A stretch of 57,117 bases of DNA from a virus. The notes beneath the pieces were generated by a model that ran no database searches, had not been told where the DNA came from, and worked only from the letters and a program-made list of their open reading frames with translations. The stretch lies in the IMG/VR virus record IMGVR_UViG_3300030381_000056; one strand, written 5' to 3'. How positions within the stretch are numbered: position 1 is the first letter of the stretch; each line of letters starts with the position of its first letter. The translations under genes were made by a program, and so were the position numbers. Below, in pieces: positions 14,113 to 57,117 of the stretch.

Positions 14113-14129
14113 GAAAAATTCCTCCGTAA

Positions 14130-14202
14130 CCCATGCAGACGGAATCGAACCGCAGACACACATCCTATGCGGATGCCGCTCTTCCACTGAAGCTATGCAT
14201 GG
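14130..14202 (-). tRNA. tRNA with CAU anticodon (Met or Ile2-type), non-canonical (G33, one T-stem mismatch)
   Basis: Hand-folded: CCATGCA/TGCATGG acceptor, D arm GCTT-CAGTGGAA-GAGC, anticodon arm GCATC-CGCATAG-GATGT, T loop TTCGATT. Confidence 0.5.
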
Positions 14203-14361
14203 AAATTGCACCGTAAAACCTTTTATGGCTTGCGCTTGCCATAACCAAATGTGCACCGCCTACTTGTCACTGACTATCCACAATCTCACAGTCTTGTCTG
14301 TTCTCTATTTCATAGGCTTGGTTTTCGCTAAACGTATGTGGCTTACGTTTTAGCCAGGGAA

Positions 14362-14469
14362 TAGTTGCCGTGGGAGTTGAACCCACCCGGCCCAAACAAG
14401 GTACGACTACTTTTGAATCTGCAAATTCTACTCGCAGAAGTGTTTTTCGTTGACCGATAATGAGCAACT
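14362..14469 (-). ncRNA. Oversized (108 nt) tRNA-like element
   Basis: Canonical T arm GTGGG-TTCAACT-CCCAC and 7-bp acceptor AGTTGCT/GGCAACT, but about 35 nt too long and with no standard anticodon arm. Confidence 0.4.
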
Positions 14470-14538
14470 ACTATCCATACATCTCCCATCGACCTGAACT
14501 ATTGCAGTAGTGCCAGACTAAGTGGAGATAAGGATAAA

Positions 14539-14606
14539 CACGCCCGGAAAGCATCGAACTTTCGTTAGAGGTTTTGGAGACCACATTCTGACCAACAGAC
14601 AGACGT
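14539..14606 (-). tRNA. tRNA-Trp (CCA), short D arm
   Basis: Anticodon loop CTCCAAA within GGTCTCCAAAACC; T arm GAAAG-TTCGATG-CTTTC; acceptor ACGTCTG/CGGGCGT with 2 G-U pairs. Confidence 0.6.
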
Positions 14607-14758
14607 ATATAAAGTTTTCACGATTTTTTGAAACTTGAAACGGTCAAACTTTTTCATTGCTTTCCAAAACAAGAGGAATTGTCGCCACCTCAACAAAGCT
14701 ACTTTCTAGAATTTTCGCTTCTCAATAGCAACCACTGGTCGCATCCTTCAGCAACGCA

Positions 14759-14842
14759 CGCCATGTTAGGGATTTGAACCCCAGAGACTTTTACATCCTG
14801 ACTGTTTTCAAGACAGCACCCTCGACCAACCGGACACATGGC
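14759..14842 (-). tRNA. tRNA-Ser (UGA), type II
   Basis: GCCATGT/ACATGGC acceptor, anticodon arm GCTGT-CTTGAAA-ACAGT, 17-nt variable arm, T loop TTCAAAT. Confidence 0.8.
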
Positions 14843-14936
14843 AAATATAACATGGTTAATTGCTAAAACAGGTATCTCAACTCACAATTATGCATATCCC
14901 CCTGCGAACAATGATATGCGTTCCCACTCGTATAAA

Positions 14937-15019
14937 CGCAGATACAAGGACTTGAACCTTGACAGCATTTCTGCTGGATAGCTTAGCAAGCTACTGTGAT
15001 ACCATTACACCATATCTGC
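14937..15019 (-). tRNA. tRNA-Ser (GCU), type II
   Basis: GCAGATA/TATCTGC acceptor, anticodon arm GTAGC-TTGCTAA-GCTAT, 16-nt variable arm, T arm CAAGG-TTCAAGT-CCTTG. Confidence 0.8.
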
Positions 15020-15176
15020 AAGGGGAGGTTTTTTACTTGGTTTTCCTCTGCCCAAGGATCTTTTAGTCAGCCGCAAGCGGCTCTATCAAGTTCCCATGAG
15101 ATAAACATTAACCGGTGTATTTATCCCCTATGCTTCTGTAATAAGCATACTCGGAGTGTACTTGCAACAACACCTA

Positions 15177-15250
15177 TTGTGACGAAGGGACTCGAACCCA
15201 TACCCCACAGCTTAGAAGACTGTTGCTCTCTCCATTTGCGCTACGTCACA
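15177..15250 (-). tRNA. tRNA-Arg (UCU)
   Basis: TGTGACG/CGTCACA acceptor, anticodon arm ACAGT-CTTCTAA-GCTGT, T loop TTCGAGT. Confidence 0.75.
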
Positions 15251-15725
15251 ATGTGCAATTCCTCAAGCTGTCTGCCGACATTTAAGGTTCGGACACCAAA
15301 CAACACTTACGGCATTTTTTTAATTCAAGTGGGATTCTACCACCAACACTCTATCCGGTAGCGAACCGGAAACATATGTGGGTAAGGATTTGCACCTCAC
15401 ATAGCTTGTATTCCTGTGAACGTCTGCCAGCGTATTACCGCCCGACCATTATCAAGCCTTACACATTAACAATACCTATTCTGTCACCACATACACCCAT
15501 CTTATGTCTGCAAGGGTAGTGCAGGATTTTTATGTCTTTACTGACAACCCACGGATTAAAACCTACAACGGTATTCCGCAAAAACCGGGCTATCATAAAC
15601 CGGTTAAACCCTCACGAGCCTTGCGACGGCTCTTAACAGCATTCCGCTATGAGGTGAAAGGAGTATTCCATGTAGATGGAATATTCGCAGATGGCAAAGA
15701 CCGAAAGAAGAAAACATCTGCGAAA

Positions 15726-15797
15726 CAGGACTACCAGGATTCGGACCTGGGAATGCAGCAGTCAAAGTGCTGTGCCTTACCGCTTGGCGATAGTCCT
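15726..15797 (-). tRNA. tRNA-Gln (UUG)
   Basis: AGGACTA/TAGTCCT acceptor, TCGCCAAGCGGTAAGGCA D region, anticodon arm CAGCA-CTTTGAC-TGCTG, T arm CCAGG-TCCGAAT-CCTGG. Confidence 0.8.
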
Positions 15798-15868
15798 AAA
15801 CTCCGGGAGAGAGACCATCTGCTCCCGGATTATTATCGTGAAACACCCTATATTGCTTTATATAAAAA

Positions 15869-17215: not shown

Positions 17216-17905
17216 CTATTCATTCGCATTTGTGTTGTTTCTGTCATACGCTCCGGAATCGGTCAACATTGATTTATTTTGTCCAAAATCTGTGTCTAAT
17301 CGTGGGAGCTGATCGGCTGTCCTGGTTATTTTGTGTACAATCTCTTGCTGTGTGGTCTGTTTCCTCCCGTGGTCGTTGTTTAATCGTTCCGTTGCTCCTA
17401 GCGCATTCCGCAGATTAAAAGCGACAAGTTGATCGCAATCCGCATCATCTAACCAATTTACAAAAGCTTTTCTGACCTCGTCCATGCTCGATGTACTTGA
17501 TTTTGTCCTCCATGCACTTAAAGCCTGTTTAGATATACCTGTTAATATCTTAAATGTATCAGCTGTAGCAGTCATATCATAAGCATTAGCTAACTCCCTA
17601 AGATATAAATAAACCTCATACAACAGATCTATGTTGTACGCATTGTAGTTAGTTAACATTTGATTAATACTATTATCCACTACGTTTTTTGGTATATCTT
17701 TTAATACATTGTTAGGTCTTATATAATTATTATATATATACTGCATGGCACCATTAAAAACCGGTTGCCGTTGTGATCTCATGTCATCGATGCCATAAGC
17801 TGCACAATAATCGTCAAAGTATTTACGGATATTTTTTTTAATCTCGTCAATGTTTGGAATCTCTCTGACGTCCTGCACCGCTCTGCACCTCCTAAAAATC
17901 CGCAT
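17216..17905 (-). CDS. Candidate terminase small subunit / DNA-packaging HTH protein
   Basis: 229 aa, first gene after a long non-coding region. Central HTH-like FKILTGISKQALSAWR resembles TerS DNA-binding motifs. Assignment is tentative. Confidence 0.4.
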   Translation of the reverse strand: MRIFRRCRAVQDVREIPNIDEIKKNIRKYFDDYCAAYGIDDMRSQRQPVFNGAMQYIYNNYIRPNNVLKDIPKNVVDNSINQMLTNYNAYNIDLLYEVYLYLRELANAYDMTATADTFKILTGISKQALSAWRTKSSTSSMDEVRKAFVNWLDDADCDQLVAFNLRNALGATERLNNDHGRKQTTQQEIVHKITRTADQLPRLDTDFGQNKSMLTDSGAYDRNNTNANE

Positions 17906-24035: not shown

Positions 24036-24701
24036 ATGGAAAATATTGTAAACGTTGAAGGAACAGAGTTAGATGTCAGAGAATACAATGGTCAGATGGT
24101 TGTTACTTTTGACGATATCGACCTTGTTCATAAAAGACCACACGGTACTGCAAGAAATGCTTTTAAAAGAAATAAAAGGCATTTTATAGATGGTGTTGAT
24201 TATTTTGTGTTGGAAAAGGAAAATTCTAATGTACACGAAACGTACATTAGAAATATTGATATTCCAAACAGAGGTATTACTGTATTTACCGAGAGTGGAT
24301 ACCTTATGCTTGTAAAGCCATTTAAGGATGATTTATCGTGGGATGTTCAGAGGAGGCTTGTAAATGCTTATTTTGCATTAAAAAATCAACAACCCACCGC
24401 CGCAATCGAGGAAAAGCCGACATTAGAGTTTGAAACAGACTGGTTCTGCATCAACCGTGGAAAAATCAACTACGTCTGCCGTTGCTACGATATTACATCA
24501 AAGGAATATATGCATCACTTACTTGAAGTTTTGGGAAGAACGTATAATTTTGATGAAGCGAAGAGGATTTACAGTGCAACGACCGGAAACTGGAAATGCA
24601 GAAATTCCGAAGTAATCACCTACTTCCCACAGCTTTCAGACCTTGCATCTAAAATTCTTCAAAAAGATTTAGCGGACTGTGCAACAGAAGAGACCCCATA
24701 A
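24036..24701 (+). CDS. ORF6N/KilA-N-type DNA-binding (antirepressor-like) protein
   Basis: VREYNGQMVVTFDDIDLVHKRPHGTARNAFKRNKRHFIDGVDYFVL fits the ORF6N domain pattern. Confidence 0.6.
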   Translation: MENIVNVEGTELDVREYNGQMVVTFDDIDLVHKRPHGTARNAFKRNKRHFIDGVDYFVLEKENSNVHETYIRNIDIPNRGITVFTESGYLMLVKPFKDDLSWDVQRRLVNAYFALKNQQPTAAIEEKPTLEFETDWFCINRGKINYVCRCYDITSKEYMHHLLEVLGRTYNFDEAKRIYSATTGNWKCRNSEVITYFPQLSDLASKILQKDLADCATEETP

Positions 24702-24714
24702 CAAGGGGTCTTTT
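24692..24714. terminator. Hairpin terminator at the end of ORF 24036..24701, at the convergent junction with the minus-strand operon ending at 24883
   Basis: GACCCC-ataacaa-GGGGTC followed by TTTTC. Confidence 0.55.
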
Positions 24715-24882
24715 CTATGCCATTCTTTTATTCGACGAAATTCGTCGAAATAAATATTTAAGGGATTATTTTTCCCCTAAAACACATTTTACTGGTATTC
24801 TGATTTTGTTAAGCGACACGTTGTCGCTCAATTATTCTATTGTATGTTAAACATACGAATCAAATCTCAATGTGAATGTCTG

Positions 24883-25203
24883 TCACATTGCCATTCCAAC
24901 AATACCTCTTATCAGTTCATCAGCCAGTGCAAACACTTCTCTTCCGTAGGTAGCCAAAAAGTCGGCAACAATCTCTTCTGTCTGAATATCCATAGTCAGA
25001 TTGTAGGATAAACAGAACGCATGGCACAATTCATGGCACAGCACACGGTCAAAGAATGAGCCATTGATTCTGTTTGAAATATAAATGCACTGTGTATTTC
25101 GGTCTGTCATTCCAAACGTGTATGTATTATCAGAACGCATTAACATAGTGCTGTGTGGCTCTACAAGCCTTAAATTCCAAACGATTCCATTTATCGTGAA
25201 CAT
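24883..25203 (-). CDS. Small HExxH zinc-metallopeptidase-like protein (ImmA/SprT-like)
   Basis: VLCHELCHAF motif; 106 aa. Confidence 0.5.
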   Translation of the reverse strand: MFTINGIVWNLRLVEPHSTMLMRSDNTYTFGMTDRNTQCIYISNRINGSFFDRVLCHELCHAFCLSYNLTMDIQTEEIVADFLATYGREVFALADELIRGIVGMAM

Positions 25204-25250
25204 CTTACCACCTCCAACATAAAAGGGGCTAAATAAGCCCCTTATGTGTG

Positions 25251-25898
25251 TTATCCAATTTTTGTTACCAGTGCAGACAGCTTGCTTTTAAGGACAGACT
25301 TCTCTTCCGGTGTGGCATCATTTATGATTTCGGACATATCCGTTGCCAGTTCCGTCATGTAGGTGTTCAGGTCACGCACTTTTGCTTCCTTGTCCGCAGG
25401 AGTGTTAGCTTTGTGCAGTTCCTTATTTTCCATGTAGGCTCTACGGCTCATGCCGCTTCTGCCCTCTCTTGAATCACGCATACCAGATAAAGAAGTTTCC
25501 GTGTAGTACATACGCCCCATGTCTCTGTCCATGTCACGGTGATACATTTCCGGTGTCATGTGATAATAAGGCGGTTCCTCATATCCTCTACGGTACGTTC
25601 CATGCCCTTTCGGTGCAAATCTTCCATCAGCATAGCGGTAATGGTCGTAGAAACGCTTGCCACCGTCACCATAACGTTCAAACATTTCCATGTTTTCGTC
25701 CGGGTCATATTCCTGCATGGTTTTTGTCAGTTCCCGGTAGTACATAGCTTCGGACAAGTCCTTAATCATATCAATGACGTTTCCCATTTCGCAAGTATCT
25801 ACTTTGTCAATTCCTTTGTCAAACTGCGTTTTAGCGCATTCAGAAAGTTTTTCAATCATTTCATGCATTCTTTTAACATCCAATTTATTTACCTCCAT
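25251..25898 (-). CDS. Hypothetical protein with helical ends and a Tyr/Arg/Met/Asp/Gly-rich disordered centre
   Basis: ..RFYDHYRYADGRFAPKGHGTYRRGYEEPPYYHMTPEMYHRDMDRDMGRMYY.. Confidence 0.55.
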   Translation of the reverse strand: MEVNKLDVKRMHEMIEKLSECAKTQFDKGIDKVDTCEMGNVIDMIKDLSEAMYYRELTKTMQEYDPDENMEMFERYGDGGKRFYDHYRYADGRFAPKGHGTYRRGYEEPPYYHMTPEMYHRDMDRDMGRMYYTETSLSGMRDSREGRSGMSRRAYMENKELHKANTPADKEAKVRDLNTYMTELATDMSEIINDATPEEKSVLKSKLSALVTKIG

Positions 25899-26691
25899 AT
25901 TCTGATATAACTTGTTCTATATCTTTTTTGTTTACCAATATTTCTTTTAATAAAATTTTATAATCGATCTTTTTATCTCTTGATATTAGTCTCAAATCTA
26001 CTTCTTTCCCGTTGTAATACGTTTTGCAAAATCCACTTAAATTCATAGCAATTTCAAAAGGAAGTTCTAAGTTGCAAACCCTATGGTACATAATTTCATA
26101 TTTCAAATTGTGGATTTCACATAACTCACTTAATGTTTTTCGCTCTCCATTGTAATCAATGTAAATGTTTCTTCTTGTATTGTTGCATTGCTCTTTTTGC
26201 GTAATCCAACGGCAATTTGATGGTTCATAGTTTCCGTTAAAATCTATTCTATCTATGGATAATCCATTTTTATAGCCATTCTTTACAGACCAGTTATAAA
26301 AATTTTGAAATCCATTTTCACCTTTCCATTCAGAACATACCTTAATGCCTCTGCCGCCATACCACATATATGCCGTTTCTTTTTCGTTTTCGCATCTTTT
26401 TCTCATAGAGCACCAAATTTTAAATAATTTAGTACCGCTCATTTTATGTGTAGTTAATTCTTCTATATGGTTCTTTCTGTTTTCTTCATTAAGGCATCCG
26501 CAACTCTTGGTGTATCCACCTTTGATTTTCGAGCTTTCAACAATTGTTTCTTTTCCACAAGAACACTTACATTTCCAATATGTCTTTTTGGTGTTCTCCT
26601 TATATACTCTTTCAACAACTGTCAGGCGGTTAAATATTTTTCCTGTCAAATCATCAAAATTATATGGTGTATTTCCTTTCTTAAAAGCCAT
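25885..26691 (-). CDS. Zn-ribbon plus conserved YGGRGI..C.EW module protein (phage DNA-binding / endonuclease-like, function unknown)
   Basis: WKCKCSCGKETIV...SCGC then W..M..RC...YGGRGIKVCSEW...NCRWITQKEQ. Confidence 0.45.
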   Translation of the reverse strand: MAFKKGNTPYNFDDLTGKIFNRLTVVERVYKENTKKTYWKCKCSCGKETIVESSKIKGGYTKSCGCLNEENRKNHIEELTTHKMSGTKLFKIWCSMRKRCENEKETAYMWYGGRGIKVCSEWKGENGFQNFYNWSVKNGYKNGLSIDRIDFNGNYEPSNCRWITQKEQCNNTRRNIYIDYNGERKTLSELCEIHNLKYEIMYHRVCNLELPFEIAMNLSGFCKTYYNGKEVDLRLISRDKKIDYKILLKEILVNKKDIEQVISEYGGK

Positions 26692-26749
26692 TTCTCAATC
26701 TCCTTTATACGTATATACCATTTTACGTGTATTATATCAATTTTATAAC

Positions 26750-26778
26750 TTTACGTCAATACGTATTTATGGTAAAAT
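26750..26778 (+). promoter_or_regulatory. Promoter of the small RHH gene, in an intergenic region with ATACGTAT-type palindromes
   Basis: TTTACG - 17 nt - TAAAAT; palindromes TATACGTATA (26706..26715) and ATACGTAT (26759..26766). Confidence 0.45.
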
Positions 26779-26801
26779 ACACTTAAAAAGGAGGTTTTAA
26801 A

Positions 26802-26948
26802 ATGTCAAAAATCAAATTCACAACAACAATGGAAAGCGAATTACTGAAAAAGATTAAAATTCAAGCAATCAAAGAACACCTTCCTGTATCAGCAATACTG
26901 GAAAGACTTATTAAAGAATACTTGTCAAGCCTGCCTAATAACGATTAA
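26802..26948 (+). CDS. Ribbon-helix-helix (CopG-like) protein, 48 aa
   Basis: MSKIKFTTTMESELLKKIKIQAIKEHLPVSAILERLIKEYLSSLPNND; AAGGAGG RBS; 3' end overlaps the convergent gene by 24 nt. Confidence 0.6.
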   Translation: MSKIKFTTTMESELLKKIKIQAIKEHLPVSAILERLIKEYLSSLPNND

Positions 26949-27347
26949 ATTAGAGTTCTGAACCTCTACTGCCTGACTTGATGTATTCATTACCGAAACT
27001 GTTGAACAACAGCATCTTGGAACGTCAATATATGCTTGTGAACTAACATTCTGTAAATTCTCTGCTGCTGCCGGAGTTACAATCATTCTTGTGGACTGTA
27101 AAGGTTCTCCGTCTACTGCCAGTGCAAGGGAAATTTCCTCAACAGTTCCACCCGTGGGAATCTGAATGTTGCCGGAATAACTTACAAGGAATCTTGCACG
27201 ACACTGATTAGTGATACCTCTTAACTTCACAATCCCGGATCCCTCTCTGTGAGTGATACAACCACTTCCATTCACGGCAGTTTCGGTAAAAGCAATGTCT
27301 GCTCCCGCTGCCACAGTCTGTAATGCTACTGCTGTATATTCAGCCAT
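26925..27347 (-). CDS. BclA C-terminal-domain-like (C1q/TNF-like jelly-roll) protein, 140 aa
   Basis: AEYTAVALQTVAAGADIAFTE..ITH..GSG..FLVSYSGN..ISLALAVDGEPL..STVSVMNTSSQAVEVQNSNLIVIRQA follows the pattern of small BclA-CTD proteins; contains a CCC triplet. Confidence 0.5.
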   Translation of the reverse strand: MAEYTAVALQTVAAGADIAFTETAVNGSGCITHREGSGIVKLRGITNQCRARFLVSYSGNIQIPTGGTVEEISLALAVDGEPLQSTRMIVTPAAAENLQNVSSQAYIDVPRCCCSTVSVMNTSSQAVEVQNSNLIVIRQA

Positions 27348-27460
27348 AAAAAGTACCTCTCTTTCAAAATAATAGGGGCAAACCATGCAGTCTGCCCCAT
27401 GTTGTCAGTAATTCTGCATAGCAGACATAACCATAAGGTTAAGTTACTCGATATGCAGTT

Positions 27461-28237
27461 TTAGCATCCGCAACCAGTGTTGCAACCACACCCGTAATAT
27501 ACGTTAGGGTTGGGAACCTGATATGCAGGAATAGGTGCAGGTTTCACAGTGTTGATGATCTGCTGTGTCTGAGCCGCCATCTGAGTAGTGAGAAGTGCAT
27601 TCTGCCGATCCTGTGAAGCTGCTCTGCGCAGATCGTTATTCTCTGCGGTCAGAGTTGCAATCTTGTCTTGGCATAAGTAGTCAAGGATTGCTCTCGTACC
27701 GGCATTTTGACTGTCGATAATGTCACGAGTGTTGTTGTTCATGGTGTTCTGCAATGCGCAAGTATTCGTTGCCATATTGTAGTTCACACCCTGGATAGCT
27801 TCACGGGTATCGCAGCAGCACTGTGCTAACTGTGCCTGTAAAGCATTAGCATTCTGCATTCCTGCTACGGTGTCTGCATTGATAGCCTGTTGGATGCCAT
27901 AGCCGGTCTGTAAAATGTTGGTATTTACGCCATTAAATCCGGTAAGCATACCGTTGTTTACAGCGTAGAATCCGTCACACAGACCATTGTTGATTCCATC
28001 CAGTTTACCGATGATAGACTGGGTGTCGAACCCTCTTTGCAATGCAGAATCGGTGTAGTAACTGGAGTTAGAGCCATTACCGCCCCATCCATTACCGCCC
28101 CAACCGCCAAAAGCAAAGAAAAGGACGAAAATAATAATCCACCAGGCACCATCGTCACCCCATGCACCGTTGTTACCGTATCCGCCATTAGCCGGCATAA
28201 CAGGCATGGTAAAGGGAGTATTGTTACTCTCAAACAT
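27461..28237 (-). CDS. Gly/Trp/Asn-rich membrane-anchored protein with Cys-rich tail
   Basis: ..GGYGNNGAWGDDGAWWIIIFVLFFAFGGWGGNGWGGNG.., Q/N-rich helical middle with CCC, ends YYGCGCNTGCGC; GGAGG RBS before ATG 28237. Confidence 0.6.
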   Translation of the reverse strand: MFESNNTPFTMPVMPANGGYGNNGAWGDDGAWWIIIFVLFFAFGGWGGNGWGGNGSNSSYYTDSALQRGFDTQSIIGKLDGINNGLCDGFYAVNNGMLTGFNGVNTNILQTGYGIQQAINADTVAGMQNANALQAQLAQCCCDTREAIQGVNYNMATNTCALQNTMNNNTRDIIDSQNAGTRAILDYLCQDKIATLTAENNDLRRAASQDRQNALLTTQMAAQTQQIINTVKPAPIPAYQVPNPNVYYGCGCNTGCGC

Positions 28238-28291
28238 AATTTTTACCTCCATATAAGATTTTTTATACTTAATCTTGCAAGAATTTAGTAT

Positions 28292-28531
28292 CTACTTCAT
28301 AGGAAACTGACGCTTGAATTTATCAAATTCGGAATCAAAATCCATACCTCGTTCCTTAGCAATATTTCTTCCTAACTGCTCTACTCCAGCAAAATCTCCT
28401 TTTTGAGCCATGCCCATTATATTTTTAGCCATAGGGTTTGACATGATCTGACTGTTTCCCATCATATTTTGGATAAACTGTCGTGGATTCCCCATTGTCT
28501 TAAGCATCTGCATAGGGTTCATCATATTCAT
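28292..28531 (-). CDS. Met/Asn/Pro-rich small protein (14 Met in 79 aa)
   Basis: MNMMNPMQMLKTMGNPRQFIQNMMGNSQIMSNPMAKNIMGMAQ..; overlaps the upstream stop. Confidence 0.55.
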   Translation of the reverse strand: MNMMNPMQMLKTMGNPRQFIQNMMGNSQIMSNPMAKNIMGMAQKGDFAGVEQLGRNIAKERGMDFDSEFDKFKRQFPMK

Positions 28532-29004
28532 TCTGCATCATCCTTTCTTTGCGATTGCGGAGTTTTTCTTTGCGATTGTGAAGATTTCAACTGCTCAATC
28601 TTCTGTTCCAGTTCATCAAACCGCTTCATAAATACCTCTGTAGCTTCGTCTGATAGGTCAAATTTCGTCTTTTCTGCGGTCTGCAGTGAATTGTTATCGT
28701 TATCTTCCAAAACAGGCTTATAGAGCCTTGTATAAATTTTCCCATCTGCTCCCCATGATTTAGCATAGATCTCTGACATATCCTGTTTAGGGAAAAATGC
28801 CGTATTGCCATCCATAGGAACCTCATTCGGTGCTATGCATTCCTGCGCTGGCACAATGCGACCGTACATCTGTACTGCGTTTTGCTGTGGCTGTTGCATA
28901 AACTGCTGTGGTTGGAATTGTTCCTGTTGTGGCATAAACTGTCCGTACATAGGTGTTCTATACTGCGGATTGAAATAGTTCGGATTCATAATCGGCTGTG
29001 GCAT
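28528..29004 (-). CDS. Protein with Gln/Pro/Met-rich N-terminus and coiled-coil C-terminus
   Basis: MPQPIMNPNYFNPQYRTPMYGQFMPQQEQFQPQQFMQQPQQ...; C-terminal tandem SQSQRKTPQSQRK. Confidence 0.55.
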   Translation of the reverse strand: MPQPIMNPNYFNPQYRTPMYGQFMPQQEQFQPQQFMQQPQQNAVQMYGRIVPAQECIAPNEVPMDGNTAFFPKQDMSEIYAKSWGADGKIYTRLYKPVLEDNDNNSLQTAEKTKFDLSDEATEVFMKRFDELEQKIEQLKSSQSQRKTPQSQRKDDAE

Positions 29005-29057
29005 GGCTATTCTCCTTTTCTTCCATTGATTCTATCTGTTTCGCAATTTCCACTTCA

Positions 29058-29246
29058 TCAAGTGTCTGATATGTCGGTTTGTTCAAAAGTCCCAACGGGC
29101 TGAAATTCATAAGCATTACCAAGTTCTCCTATAACTTCCTCTGCTGCATGGACTACGATTGATTGATATTTAAGCGGAACACTTCCCATCTGTTCTTTAC
29201 TAAAAATACGTTCCAACGCTTCATCTGAAAATCTAAATTTTGCCAT
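29058..29246 (-). CDS. Hypothetical acidic protein (62 aa), first gene of the attP-proximal cassette
   Basis: AAGGAGG RBS; MAKFRFSDEALERIF... Confidence 0.5.
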   Translation of the reverse strand: MAKFRFSDEALERIFSKEQMGSVPLKYQSIVVHAAEEVIGELGNAYEFQPVGTFEQTDISDT

Positions 29247-29280
29247 AAGGTCATTCCTCCTTATGCTTAAATTTTGGCAT

Positions 29281-29302
29281 AAAAAAAGACGGTCTACCCG
29301 TC
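29281..29302 (-). terminator. Rho-independent terminator downstream of the integrase/attP region
   Basis: Minus strand GACGG-gtaga-CCGTC followed by TTTTTTT. Confidence 0.6.
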
Positions 29303-29372
29303 ATGTATCCGTCACATTTCATTCACTATAAAATTATTGGAATCTTTGCAAAAAACTCCTTTCGTTTTAGGC

Positions 29373-29557
29373 TTGACTACTATTTTGACTACTATTCGAC
29401 TACCCATTGCCCGGGAATGCCCATTTTATCAGCTTTTTCGAGTGGAAGCAAGGGGGCTCGAACCCCACTCTATTCCTCTTACTTTCCGCATATTTACTGG
29501 CTTTCTAGGTGTTTTTTGTTGATTACTTTTGACTACTTTTGCAAAAATAGTAGTCAA
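29373..29557. mobile_element. attP: tRNA 3'-end core (about 29443..29470) flanked by six arm-type TTGACTACT(A/T)T repeats
   Basis: Minus strand ..GGGGTTCGAGCCCCCTTGCTTCCA is a T arm plus acceptor 3' half with no 5' half. Repeats at 29373, 29385, 29396, 29519, 29529 and inverted at 29547. Adjacent to the integrase gene. Confidence 0.65.
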
Positions 29558-29558
29558 A

Positions 29559-30779
29559 TCACCTTGCCTGTAAATCTGGGATACTACTCAAAATAGACGA
29601 TTTCTTTTCAATGGTTTTCCTATTCCTATGATAGTGTATTTCTGAAGTCATAATATCTGTATGCCCCATCTGATCCATGACAAGTCTTTTGTCTACATTG
29701 TTATCCATAAGAATAGTTCCATATGTCTTTCTTACTTTGTGCGGTGGCTTTGGATAAATTTTCAATTTTCTGCAAAGCCTTTTTTGCCTTTGCCTAACCG
29801 CCTGTGCAGTAACCCTGATATCATTTTTGGTAAAAATGTAATCTCCAAATGGATTCATGTACTTTATTTTATCACAAATCCATACATAATCATTCGGTAT
29901 AATTGCTGTTCTGATTCCTGCCTTAGTTTTAGGATACTCTTTTACTTCAACAACATTGTTTCCGTTTTCGTCTTTATACTTCGTCTCCGTTCTGCGAACG
30001 TTAAAAGTATTATCAAAAAAATCGGAATGTCTTAATGTTACAACTTCTCCGATACGCACACCAGTTAAAAACATAAGCAATATAGCAATATTAGAAGTGT
30101 CAAGGTGGTTGACAAGATATTTAATCATTACATCCGTTTCATATTCGTCGAATACCTCTTCATAGTCTTCCTTTATTACTTTTTTAAAATCACTATCAGA
30201 TACGTCAAGATTCTCAAAAAGTTCTACAATATTAAAATCAATAAGTTTACGTTTTTTCGCCCGTTTAAGGAAGGTTCTTGTAATTCCTTTTAGACCGGAA
30301 AAAGATTTAGGTGTCAACTCTTTATCGGCAATTTCTTCCTCTAAAAAATCCCCCCATTCATCTTCTGATATTGATTTTATTCTTCGCTTACCTAACTCTC
30401 CATAGTGTCTTAGAAAATATCTCTCATCTCTATCGTATGTTGCTTTGCATATCTTTTTAAGATACAATCTTCGGTCTTCACATTCGTAAAACACTTCTGT
30501 AACTGTTGGATTTTGCTCTTTTTGGTAGTAAAACTTAATAACTTCTTCTTTGAGATCTTCCTCGCTTTTCTTTTTTACAAGTCTCCTTCCTTTTTCCTCA
30601 TCCGGCAAATAAGTTCTCCAGTATCCGTCTTTGCCTTTGTTGATCGCGTATTGATGTTTCTTTAGATACTCTTCTTTCTTTTTCATTTCAATGCTTTTTT
30701 GCAAAGATTCCGTGTCAATCATACCATTGCTAACGGCATATTGCAATATTTCCATATTAGAAAGTTCCAAATCTATCAC
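29559..30779 (-). CDS. int: Tyrosine recombinase / phage integrase
   Basis: 406 aa; C-terminus ..HKVRKTYGTILMDNNVDKRLVMDQMGHTDIMTSEIHYHRNR (R..H..GH..Y catalytic pattern); N-terminal arm-binding-like DGYWRTYL. Confidence 0.85.
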   Translation of the reverse strand: MIDLELSNMEILQYAVSNGMIDTESLQKSIEMKKKEEYLKKHQYAINKGKDGYWRTYLPDEEKGRRLVKKKSEEDLKEEVIKFYYQKEQNPTVTEVFYECEDRRLYLKKICKATYDRDERYFLRHYGELGKRRIKSISEDEWGDFLEEEIADKELTPKSFSGLKGITRTFLKRAKKRKLIDFNIVELFENLDVSDSDFKKVIKEDYEEVFDEYETDVMIKYLVNHLDTSNIAILLMFLTGVRIGEVVTLRHSDFFDNTFNVRRTETKYKDENGNNVVEVKEYPKTKAGIRTAIIPNDYVWICDKIKYMNPFGDYIFTKNDIRVTAQAVRQRQKRLCRKLKIYPKPPHKVRKTYGTILMDNNVDKRLVMDQMGHTDIMTSEIHYHRNRKTIEKKSSILSSIPDLQAR

Positions 30780-55570: not shown

Positions 55571-57117
55571 TTAAGTAATAATCTGTAATCCCATAGTTTT
55601 CTGACCTCTTAAGCTTGCCCTTGCTATGTCTCTATCACCGATATTTACAGATGTTTCTTTTGCAAGTAATTGCTTTAACAGGCTGATTTCTTCTGCCATC
55701 ATACGCATTTGTGCTTCTGCCGTGGAATTGATAGCTTCTTTGATTCCTGTTATTTCAGCTCCACCGGCAACCGCTGTCTTACCACCTACTGTTCCGGCAA
55801 TCTCTGGCACTCCGTTTTCTCCTGCCATGAACATTGTGTATCGACTAGGAACGTAACCGCCTGTCTCAAATGTGGGGATTCTGCCAAGGTTTACACTTCC
55901 GCCCGGAACAAGTTCTTTTCCGAGTACAACAACCGGATCCCATGAAAAGTTTAACTTATCATTTATCCAGTTTGCAAACCTATTCCAAATTTGTTTGACA
56001 GCCTCTATTGCATTATTCCATGCATTAGATAATCCGTCTTTAATGCCACTCCATGTCCATTTTTCGGTAGTAAAATATGATTTTACGTTGTTCCACCACT
56101 TTGCAAAACCAATATTTTTCCACCATGCGGTAAATTCATTCCATTTCGTAGAAAGTGCGGTCTTAATATTTGTCCCTAATTGATTCCATTTTTCAGCAGA
56201 AAACCAAGGCTTGACAGATTCATTAAACCAGTTTTCAACAATAGGTTTTAAATTTTCAAACACTGATACTAAACCAAATGTATCATTTATGTCCAGTTTA
56301 AATTGTGATAAGAAATCAAAAAACTGTCTTATCGGCATTGTTTTTGTCAAAAAATCTGCCGCATCAGAGTTCATCTGTTTCCAAGCGTCAAAAAGTATTG
56401 AAAAATCTGTGTTTTTTATTGTATCAAAGAATCCACCTTCTCCAAAAAACGAAAAATTATCATATGTTTCTTTATCATCAGGGAAAAGTGCTTTACCTAA
56501 TGATTTACCTACATTAAATCCAATTTCCCAAGTAACAGAAGCTATTGCGATTGTAGGAACTATTCCTATGCTTGAACCAAGTACTGTGGCTGATAACTTA
56601 TCCGATATTTTTCCCCATATAATATCTCCCACACCAGTAAACTTCAAAAGTCCTATTGCCGTCAGAATCGTGGTTTCAATCGGTGCTGCATCGAAACTTC
56701 CTTTCCACAGATCGATTGCCGCATCTATGGCAGTTTCTATGAAATTTCCAGCAGATGTAAAAATGGCAGTCCAATCAATACCATTCAAGAAACTTCCTAT
56801 ATGTCTTCCGATTTTTTCCCAGTCCACAGAATCTATTGCTCTTGTAAACCAGTCAAAAATACCAGTTACTAGTTTGGACGTATCCATTCCGGCAACTTTA
56901 AACCATGAATCAGAATCAAACTTAAATGCATACGCCAGATCTTCTATAATATCTTTTACTGGTTTAAACACCTTGCTTACTTTGTCAGCCCAACCCATAG
57001 CTGTATTCTGCATCTTGTCAAATGCTTCTTGCCATACTTTTTCGTATTCAGCAGTAGCATCCATGATTTCCTTGGTAAGGTCAATTCCTGATCCACCAGC
57101 ACCTGATGTTTTTCCGG
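55571..57117 (-). CDS. Tail tape measure protein, C-terminal part (continues from 1702..1 across the junction)
   Basis: Frame is open upstream of the listed Met to the window end. W/F-rich repeats (..KWNEFTAWWKNIGFAKWWNNVK..) and a Gly-rich C-terminus are typical of TMPs. Confidence 0.8.
   Translation of the reverse strand, partial: GKTSGAGGSGIDLTKEIMDATAEYEKVWQEAFDKMQNTAMGWADKVSKVFKPVKDIIEDLAYAFKFDSDSWFKVAGMDTSKLVTGIFDWFTRAIDSVDWEKIGRHIGSFLNGIDWTAIFTSAGNFIETAIDAAIDLWKGSFDAAPIETTILTAIGLLKFTGVGDIIWGKISDKLSATVLGSSIGIVPTIAIASVTWEIGFNVGKSLGKALFPDDKETYDNFSFFGEGGFFDTIKNTDFSILFDAWKQMNSDAADFLTKTMPIRQFFDFLSQFKLDINDTFGLVSVFENLKPIVENWFNESVKPWFSAEKWNQLGTNIKTALSTKWNEFTAWWKNIGFAKWWNNVKSYFTTEKWTWSGIKDGLSNAWNNAIEAVKQIWNRFANWINDKLNFSWDPVVVLGKELVPGGSVNLGRIPTFETGGYVPSRYTMFMAGENGVPEIAGTVGGKTAVAGGAEITGIKEAINSTAEAQMRMMAEEISLLKQLLAKETSVNIGDRDIARASLRGQKTMGLQIIT

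Follow-up and report, generated by a model that had tools for sequence, protein, structure and literature searches.

Here we analyse 57,117 nucleotides (nt) of viral DNA (IMG/VR virus record IMGVR_UViG_3300030381_000056; this whole stretch is referred to as the window) and describe a conserved accessory module of seven genes, g1, g2, g3, g4, g5, p215 and p106, encoded on its minus strand beside the phage attachment site attP. Phages can dispense with the module, which passes as a unit from one tailed phage of gut Clostridia to another, unrelated one. Its gene set is that of no described system, and its sole ties to known families are the g5 fold and the p106 peptidase motif. The seven proteins may build a membrane-tethered cytoplasmic assembly during phage development, a tentative reading to which we assign a probability of roughly 0.4 and which is weighed below against roles in the virion, the spore, an appendage-like surface layer and superinfection defence. 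The module comprises the following genes, with protein lengths in amino acids (aa):

29058-29246, minus strand: g1, 62 aa, acidic (isoelectric point 4.4), found only in closer relatives
28528-29004, minus strand: g2, 158 aa, match to phrog_21718
28292-28531, minus strand: g3, 79 aa with 14 Met, start overlapping the g2 stop by 4 nt
27461-28237, minus strand: g4, 258 aa, match to phrog_16490 (E 2e-61)
26925-27347, minus strand: g5, 140 aa, contains RCCCS, match to phrog_20016
25251-25898, minus strand: p215, 215 aa, conserved partner in 79 of 86 loci
24883-25203, minus strand: p106, 106 aa, small zinc metallopeptidase, SprT-like or M78-like

A seven-gene module conserved in phages of gut Firmicutes

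A preliminary description of this DNA, made from the letters alone, had set out a cassette of five co-oriented genes. All five open reading frames (ORFs) are present on the minus strand between 26925 and 29246, Shine-Dalgarno ribosome-binding sites back the start codons chosen there, and the compositions that it called extreme were recomputed and are correct for g2, g3, g4 and g5. The unit itself is larger, since p215 and p106 follow g5 and the boundary therefore does not lie at 26925. Nor are the genes uniformly as tightly coupled as had been stated: g2 and g3 alone overlap, whereas the other gaps measure 53-113 nt and a strong hairpin separates g4 from g5.

The search set was built by tblastn and iterative profile searches and grew from 33 fetched loci at first to more than 120 later. 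Across the searched loci the gene order g1, g2, g3, g4, g5, p215, p106 is constant, and the succession of g2, a small gene, g4, g5 and p215 is found in more than 100 phage and prophage loci of Lachnospiraceae and Oscillospiraceae. The preliminary description had proposed looking for the same neighbourhood elsewhere, and this core order is what recurs in the more than 100 loci. Of 86 loci with sufficient flanking sequence, all contain g2, and g5 and p215 are found in 79 each. Profiles detect the small genes g1, g3 and p106 in 22-25 loci; an ORF of 66-91 aa occupies the g3 position in nearly all loci, usually also in those without a profile match.

Because homologue clusters are so many (at 90% identity, more than 8000 for g4 and more than 3100 for g5) and PHROG matches exist, g1 to g5 are genuine genes rather than chance ORFs. 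The families matched by g2, g4 and g5 in PHROGs are all of unknown function, and g1 and g3 have no match in Pfam, NCBIfam or PHROGs. Exact copies of the window proteins occur on many public contigs, where every named cluster member is a "hypothetical protein". The module is widespread in human and animal gut viromes, with the exact window g4 protein on contigs from hundreds of samples; few uncharacterised gene modules in phages of the Firmicutes that dominate the human gut have spread as widely, and knowledge of its function would give six or seven genes an annotation across thousands of gut phage genomes. Searches of PDB sequences with single sequences and profiles of g4, g5, g2, p215 and g5′ (an alternative protein at the g5 position, described below) returned only chance-level coiled-coil matches. 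That no known system could be named for this gene set therefore still holds, as Pfam, NCBIfam, PHROGs and PDB add nothing further; the PHROG matches are of unknown function throughout, and there is no match to a structural family in Pfam or PDB.

g4, the central protein, and its predicted helical rod

The central and most conserved member of the module is g4, whose family counts its more than 8000 clusters at 90% identity and whose identity across phages of many hosts is 70-97%. The protein starts with a Gly/Trp/Asn-rich N-terminus and a single hydrophobic span (AWWIIIFVLFFAFGG), continues through about 160 residues of predicted long alpha-helix into a Pro-rich linker and a Cys-rich tail (GCGCNTGCGC), and ends in YYGCGCNTGCGC; it holds 10 Cys, including a CCC motif. 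In the family alignment the Gly/Trp-rich anchor is conserved, segments such as NTRDIIDSQNAGTRAILDYLCQDK are near-invariant, the linker reads PxPxPAY and the CC within CCC is invariant, while the Cys-rich tail varies in length with its Cys positions conserved. An AlphaFold2 model of low confidence (pLDDT 51) places a transmembrane helix at residues 32-44 and further helices at 74-108 and 119-231. On this low-confidence model, g4 would be a helical rod that is anchored in the membrane by its N-terminus and carries a Cys-rich tail. By sequence inspection only, no module protein has an N-terminal signal peptide, and apart from g4 none has a hydrophobic N-terminus.

A suspected resemblance of the g4 N-terminus to the tiny sporulation proteins of the YjcZ type was dropped, as there is no NCBIfam match at E <= 1.

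A BclA_C-type fold in g5 and its replacement in other lineages

The preliminary description had likened the pattern of g5 to small C1q/TNF-like C-terminal domains of BclA, and structure prediction bears out the fold. The AlphaFold2 model (pLDDT 83, pTM 0.78) is a compact, all-beta jelly roll for which Foldseek returns F-BclA, BclA, ExsFA and BxpB at the top (9h38, 1wck, 7r1m, 8d02; E 1e-7 to 3e-5, TM 0.70-0.74), with TNF/C1q family members and phage spike or fibre knobs lower in the ranking. The fold also matches the knobs of phi812, cyanophage A4 and A-1(L) and tail-fibre proteins in BFVD, and the viral structure matches include proteins already named "BclA". On this model, g5 is a stand-alone jelly roll of the BclA_C or TNF/C1q-like type.

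At the sequence level the window protein has no Pfam match at E <= 0.1, hence none to BclA_C (PF18573), which is matched by 5 of 74 diverse representatives of the g5 family (best E 2.3e-10); single-sequence and profile searches of PDB sequences gave no match either, 7r1m and 8d02 included. The homologues, which fall into 761 clusters at 50% identity, are stand-alone proteins of 76-196 aa in all of the best 150 representatives, none of which is fused to a collagen stalk or to g4. An alignment of close homologues shows four invariant Cys (Cys30, Cys49, Cys113 and Cys114, the last two adjacent as CC), and the gene is phage-borne in every locus examined.

In many lineages the g5 position is held by an alternative protein, g5′, of 131-134 aa, which is Cys-rich, starts with MACKPVCKLC, and carries an N-terminal CxxxCxxC as well as a CC pair of its own (loci L013, L015, L018-L020, L022, L023, L025, L026 and others; e.g. 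L019:6823-7227). Searches of Pfam and of PDB sequences return no match for it. A reading of g5′ as a divergent BclA_C domain was rejected, as hhalign gives a probability of 0.9% and no relation to g5 is detectable.

Partner proteins and selfish elements within the module

The remaining proteins are of low complexity, coiled-coil or enzymatic character. In g2, 37 of the first 42 residues are Q, P, M, N, Y or F, and across the family this N-terminus is variable and rich in Tyr, Gln and Pro; after it come a conserved central domain (about 55 residues), a coiled-coil helix towards the C-terminus and, in the window protein, the basic tail SQSQRK-TPQSQRK. In p215, conserved N- and C-terminal helices surround a disordered, low-complexity middle rich in Arg, Tyr, Gly and Asp. 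The p106 protein has an HExxH motif with a Glu pair about 15 residues downstream; among 16 relatives H57, E58, H61 and E77 are invariant and E76 nearly so. Its Pfam scores lie below the gathering thresholds, at 19.6 bits for M78 (cut-off 22) and 18.1 bits for SprT-like (cut-off 25.6), and 8 of the 16 relatives have weak SprT-like or M78 matches (best E 2e-5), likewise below the curated thresholds. A suspected resemblance of g3 to Met-rich STI1/DP domains was dropped for lack of a Pfam match at E <= 0.1.

The window copy of the module is split between g5 and p215 by a selfish element:

25899-26924, no strand assigned: insert of about 1 kb between g5 and p215
25885-26691, minus strand: HNH endonuclease in the insert
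26802-26948, plus strand: 48-aa RHH ORF in the insert, overlapping the g5 stop
26731-26759, minus strand: strong promoter-like site (sigma-70-like) in the insert

Two otherwise identical relatives differ in this insert, which is present in L238 and absent from L236, and HNH genes sit at different junctions of the module in different loci. Such repeated insertions suggest that the module genes are conserved and expressed. In one further locus, from Firmicutes bacterium CAG:882 (L017:1556-2856; FR895360.1), the g4 homologue is split exactly at the conserved CCC motif by an insert of about 1.25 kb. The insert encodes a GIY-YIG-like ORF (288 aa) and matches the group I intron model of Rfam, though below the gathering score (34.6 bits, E 3.7e-6); this interruption is probably a group I intron.

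attP, genomic contexts and dispensability

The window genome carries a siphovirus set of genes for a large terminase, portal, major capsid, neck and major tail proteins and a GH25 lysin. A tape-measure-like ORF of 1086 aa is open across the window ends (1-1714 joined to 55574-57117), which makes the window a complete, circularly permuted genome; the 497-aa ORF listed at 55571-57064 is only the C-terminal part of that protein. The integration site lies between the module and a tyrosine integrase gene (29559-30779):

29443-29466, minus strand: attP core region, an exact 24-mer equal to the tRNA-Val(CAC) 3′ end (T-arm and acceptor strand)

In two integrated copies (L050 and L058) this 24-mer is contained in complete tRNA-Val(CAC) genes that lie about 200 nt upstream of g1 in the same orientation. 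Since it forms the end of a complete tRNA gene just upstream of g1 there, attP is confirmed where the preliminary description had put it, next to the cassette. In lysogens the module is the first element inside the prophage, directly downstream of host tRNA genes; in other integrated copies (L035, L038, L237) host genes abut g1.

The att-proximal position holds for this lineage, where the module adjoins attP and forms the prophage edge in integrated copies, but elsewhere the module lies in the head-gene region or after the endolysin. Three contexts recur. In the first, the module is beside att with a tyrosine or serine integrase. In the second, the commonest arrangement among the viral loci fetched, it belongs to an island of small genes in phages of about 44 kb, oriented like the late genes and flanked by an SPP1-gp7-like minor capsid gene on one side and by the scaffold and major capsid genes on the other. 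In the third, it directly follows the endolysin, as in Butyrivibrio phage Ceridwen, which has been observed only in lytic growth and whose record lists no integrase or excisionase. The genes had earlier been described as lysogenic-conversion cargo; a link to lysogeny is not supported, with Ceridwen, observed only in lytic growth, and head-gene regions carrying the module, whereas the accessory nature implied by "cargo" agrees with deletion variants and varied genome contexts, which mark a dispensable, horizontally mobile unit.

Exchange is seen directly at the module's upstream edge, where tyrosine and serine integrase/att modules have been swapped before the same cargo with the breakpoint exactly at a T-run ahead of g1. 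A close relative of the window phage (L163:6157-7080; IMGVR_UViG_3300045988_082428) shows a clean natural deletion of about 3.6 kb, after which g1 and p106 remain whole while g2 keeps only its first part and p215 only its end. The genes g2 to g5 are absent from three loci of the 44-kb lineage (L127, L135 and L148). A p215-like gene beside the minor capsid gene persists in two of these, L148 and L135, after the loss of g2 to g5. In its moves between phage lineages that differ in integrase and genome layout, the module stays intact.

The serine-integrase variant, found on two metagenomic contigs (L038:8366-8896 and L237:5377-5907), abuts a 5′-truncated gene of the sigG/sigF family (model positions 94-257 of 258), and spoIIGA and sigE adjoin the truncated gene. 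This looks like a serine-integrase prophage that interrupts a sporulation sigma-factor gene, the other half of which was not retrieved.

Hairpins and expression signals

Four hairpin regions punctuate the module:

29281-29302, minus strand: weak hairpin with T-run before the g1 ribosome-binding site (z = -1.7); the conserved module sequence starts at the T-run
27375-27398, minus strand: GC-rich 10-bp hairpin with U-rich tail in the g4/g5 gap, attenuator- or terminator-like (z = -3.8; 0 of 200 shuffles fold as well)
25223-25243, minus strand: hairpin between p215 and p106 (z = -3.2)
24757-24828, no strand assigned: terminator-like hairpins closing the module (z = -3.7), facing a convergent anti-repressor gene block

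The terminator that had been noted before the cassette is recovered as the hairpin with T-run at 29288-29302, though it is weak (z = -1.7). Three different integrase/att modules each bring their own hairpin stem, and the sequence from the T-run onward is common to all. The stretch of about 40 nt from the T-run to the g1 start is almost invariant and holds the near-palindrome ATGCCAAAATTTAAGCAT and no promoter match, and the T-run is able to pair with the g1 ribosome-binding site. Promoter-like matches occur at chance level (26 found against 21.8 expected), and no sporulation-type promoter is evident.

A putative membrane-tethered assembly and its alternatives

We favour, tentatively, a model in which g4 would be the major subunit, a bitopic protein whose uncharged, Gly/Trp-rich N-terminal helix would serve as the anchor and whose rod and Cys-rich tail would lie in the cytoplasm. 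Coiled-coil or low-complexity proteins, g2, g3 and p215, would assemble on g4, the trimer-type BclA_C domain of g5 would be an exchangeable peripheral subunit, and p106 might process one module component. The hairpins after g4 and after p215 would lower stoichiometry along the operon, and the whole would assemble at the inner membrane face of the infected or induced cell, acting during phage development, e.g. as an organising platform, a modifier of lysis or the envelope, or a block to superinfection, rather than as a constitutively expressed lysogenic-conversion factor for spores. Several observations point this way. Partners without export signals, together with anchor flanks of g4 that lack positive charge, suggest assembly in the cytoplasm or at the inner membrane face; expression may be graded by the hairpins that follow g4 and p215, making g4 the main product; and the hairpin and T-run before g1 in every variant, the promoterless 40 nt that follow and the occurrence in late-gene regions and in a phage observed only in lytic growth suggest expression in the development phase. 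If borne out, the module could reveal a new kind of phage-built cellular structure.

Other observations weigh against this model. The g4 model has a pLDDT of 51 and the topology is argued solely from charge distribution, while the interactions among the module proteins are hypothetical. Expression timing, be it lytic, in the lysogen or in sporulation, is inferred solely from position and hairpins, and with a hairpin as weak as that before g1 (z = -1.7) and the module downstream of tRNA genes, read-through in lysogens is possible. The retention of p215 in phages without g2 to g5 suggests that p215 may serve a different, partly independent function. Finally, a virion role would account just as well for the head-gene position, the TNF-like fold and the selfish-element insertions.

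Such a role, although unlikely on balance, is the alternative that deserves most attention. In it g4 would be a coiled-coil fibre, or an ejection protein that uses its hydrophobic N-terminus to enter the host membrane, g5 (or g5′) a trimeric knob or decoration, p215, g2 and g3 chaperones or scaffolds, and p106 a maturation protease. Most viral loci fetched do place the module on the late-gene strand between minor capsid and scaffold or major capsid genes; Ceridwen, observed only in lytic growth, carries it; phage spike and tail-fibre knobs (phi812, cyanophage A4, A-1(L), BFVD) match the g5 fold as well; the module proteins lack signal peptides; and homing endonucleases and introns, which favour conserved phage genes such as these, have entered the module. 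Against this, no member matches a structural family in PHROGs, Pfam or PDB, a transmembrane-like segment is unusual for a tailed-phage virion protein, the module can be deleted, the window lineage keeps it beside att with an opposite-strand block between module and packaging genes, and the window phage already has its normal siphovirus set of terminase, portal, capsid, tail and 1086-aa tape measure. A further reading starts from the best structural matches of g5, which are exosporium and spore-appendage proteins (F-BclA, ExsFA, BxpB, BclA); the module would be lysogenic-conversion cargo made in the sporulating mother cell, with g5 as an ExsFA/BxpB-like hub and Cys-, Tyr- and Gln-rich partners as cross-linkable coat material. 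Absent signal peptides are what assembly in the mother-cell cytoplasm would call for, the CC and CCC motifs bring to mind the Cys-Cys motifs that couple subunits in endospore appendages (PMC12357932), Tyr and Arg are enriched in p215 and Gln in g2, and the module sits at the prophage edge downstream of tRNA genes in a lineage some of whose hosts carry spoIIGA and sigE and whose serine-integrase variant lies in a truncated sigG/sigF-like gene. We nevertheless consider remodelling of the spore coat or exosporium improbable. The preliminary description had raised spore- or cell-surface remodelling as a possibility; a spore effect is not demonstrated and is in part contradicted, as no member among g1 to g5 and p215 falls in a coat or exosporium family by sequence (Pfam, NCBIfam) and g5 is replaceable, an unrelated protein taking its position in many lineages. 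The TNF/C1q fold is also generic and common in viral proteins, the hairpin with T-run would insulate the module from upstream transcription in every variant, a sporulation-type promoter is not apparent, and the module is carried in late-gene regions and by a phage of Butyrivibrio fibrisolvens that has been observed only in lytic growth, a host species classically described as a non-spore-former. Literature searches brought up no phage-encoded BclA or exosporium protein from these hosts.

Equally doubtful is a broader proposal, drawn by analogy, that the module is a self-contained kit for a Cys-coupled appendage or layer anchored in the membrane or envelope, like the exosporium or the endospore appendages, that would alter the surface of the cell, spore or virion through a BclA_C-type head, coupling by CC motifs and cytoplasmic assembly in the infected or mother cell. 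A shade less probable still is a superinfection-exclusion or defence moron, in which membrane-bound g4 would block DNA entry or trigger abortive infection with p106 as effector or regulator. An accessory, mobile and dispensable module at the prophage edge that combines a membrane-anchored protein with a small M78/SprT-like peptidase would suit that role, yet seven conserved genes for largely structural, low-complexity proteins are unlike known exclusion systems, the conservation of g4 is very strong (70-97% identity across phages of many hosts) and atypical for fast-evolving defence genes, and the carriers include Ceridwen, for which only lytic growth has been observed. The module is accessible in cultured systems, namely Butyrivibrio phage Ceridwen (proteins QHJ73766-QHJ73769) and the related prophage in Lachnospira intestinalis CLA-AA-H89B (locus L005).

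Comparison with known systems

The closest structural parallels to g5 are the TNF/C1q-like jelly-roll trimers of the Bacillus cereus group, that is, the BclA C-terminal domain, ExsFA and BxpB, whose fold g5 is predicted to share. Like ExsFA and BxpB it is a stand-alone domain of about 140 aa; unlike BclA it has neither a collagen-like GXX stalk nor an N-terminal exosporium leader, and it differs from all of these in being phage-encoded and replaceable by another family. The likeness is one of fold, from which trimer formation and spore association would be extrapolations. Neither g1 to g5 nor p215 belongs by sequence to the Cys-rich coat and exosporium proteins CotY/ExsY or CdeC/CdeM. Endospore appendages (ENA) offer a parallel in organisation, as their fibre subunits are coupled to BclA-like tip proteins by Cys-Cys motifs (PMC12357932). 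The module likewise pairs a C1q/BclA_C-type domain with CC- and CCC-bearing partners, all without signal peptides; however, no scanned member matches the ENA subunit families DUF3992 and DUF4183, g4 is a predicted membrane-anchored alpha-helical rod whereas the ENA subunit is a beta-sandwich pilin, and the module resides in phages and not in sporulation loci.

Comparable positions are known from the morons and conversion cassettes at the prophage ends of Gram-positive phages, e.g. toxin genes between the lysin gene and att. The present module is likewise att-proximal in this lineage, bounded by terminator hairpins, dispensable and exchanged, but it is far larger (seven genes) and more conserved, occurs also in late-gene regions and in a phage observed only in lytic growth, and has no identifiable promoter of its own. 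Protein p16.7 of phi29, with an N-terminal membrane anchor, a coiled coil and a C-terminal binding domain, organises phage DNA replication at the membrane. The predicted overall architecture of g4 (transmembrane helix, coiled-coil rod, C-terminal module) is similar, and this comparison may serve as a lead only, since g4 is twice as long and Cys-rich and there is no sequence or fold evidence of relationship. Finally, p106 shares the HExxH and downstream Glu of SprT-like and M78 (ImmA/IrrE) proteins, but lacks the adjacent XRE-type repressor partner of ImmA/ImmR pairs.

Other features of the window genome

The preliminary description had also mentioned a Spo0A-C-like gene in this phage; none was found in a partial check that scanned a subset of the ORFs. 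A tblastn search of the window with an approximate query for the Bacillus subtilis Spo0A C-domain gave a best E of 2.7. The sole 6-mer match to that query is an exact YLYLRE hexapeptide in a 229-aa ORF (17216-17905) that has no Pfam or PHROG match. An Rfam scan of 24500-30000 returned nothing relevant.

The lysin gene (1762-2637; GH25 and PG_binding_1) is unusually placed: instead of closing the late region it lies between genes of tail-chaperone size and the tape-measure gene. A cluster of five tRNA genes (Met, Ser-TGA, Ser-GCT, Arg-TCT and Gln-TTG) lies at 14129-15798, upstream of the packaging genes, and the tRNA sets of relatives are variable, including Tyr and Glu.

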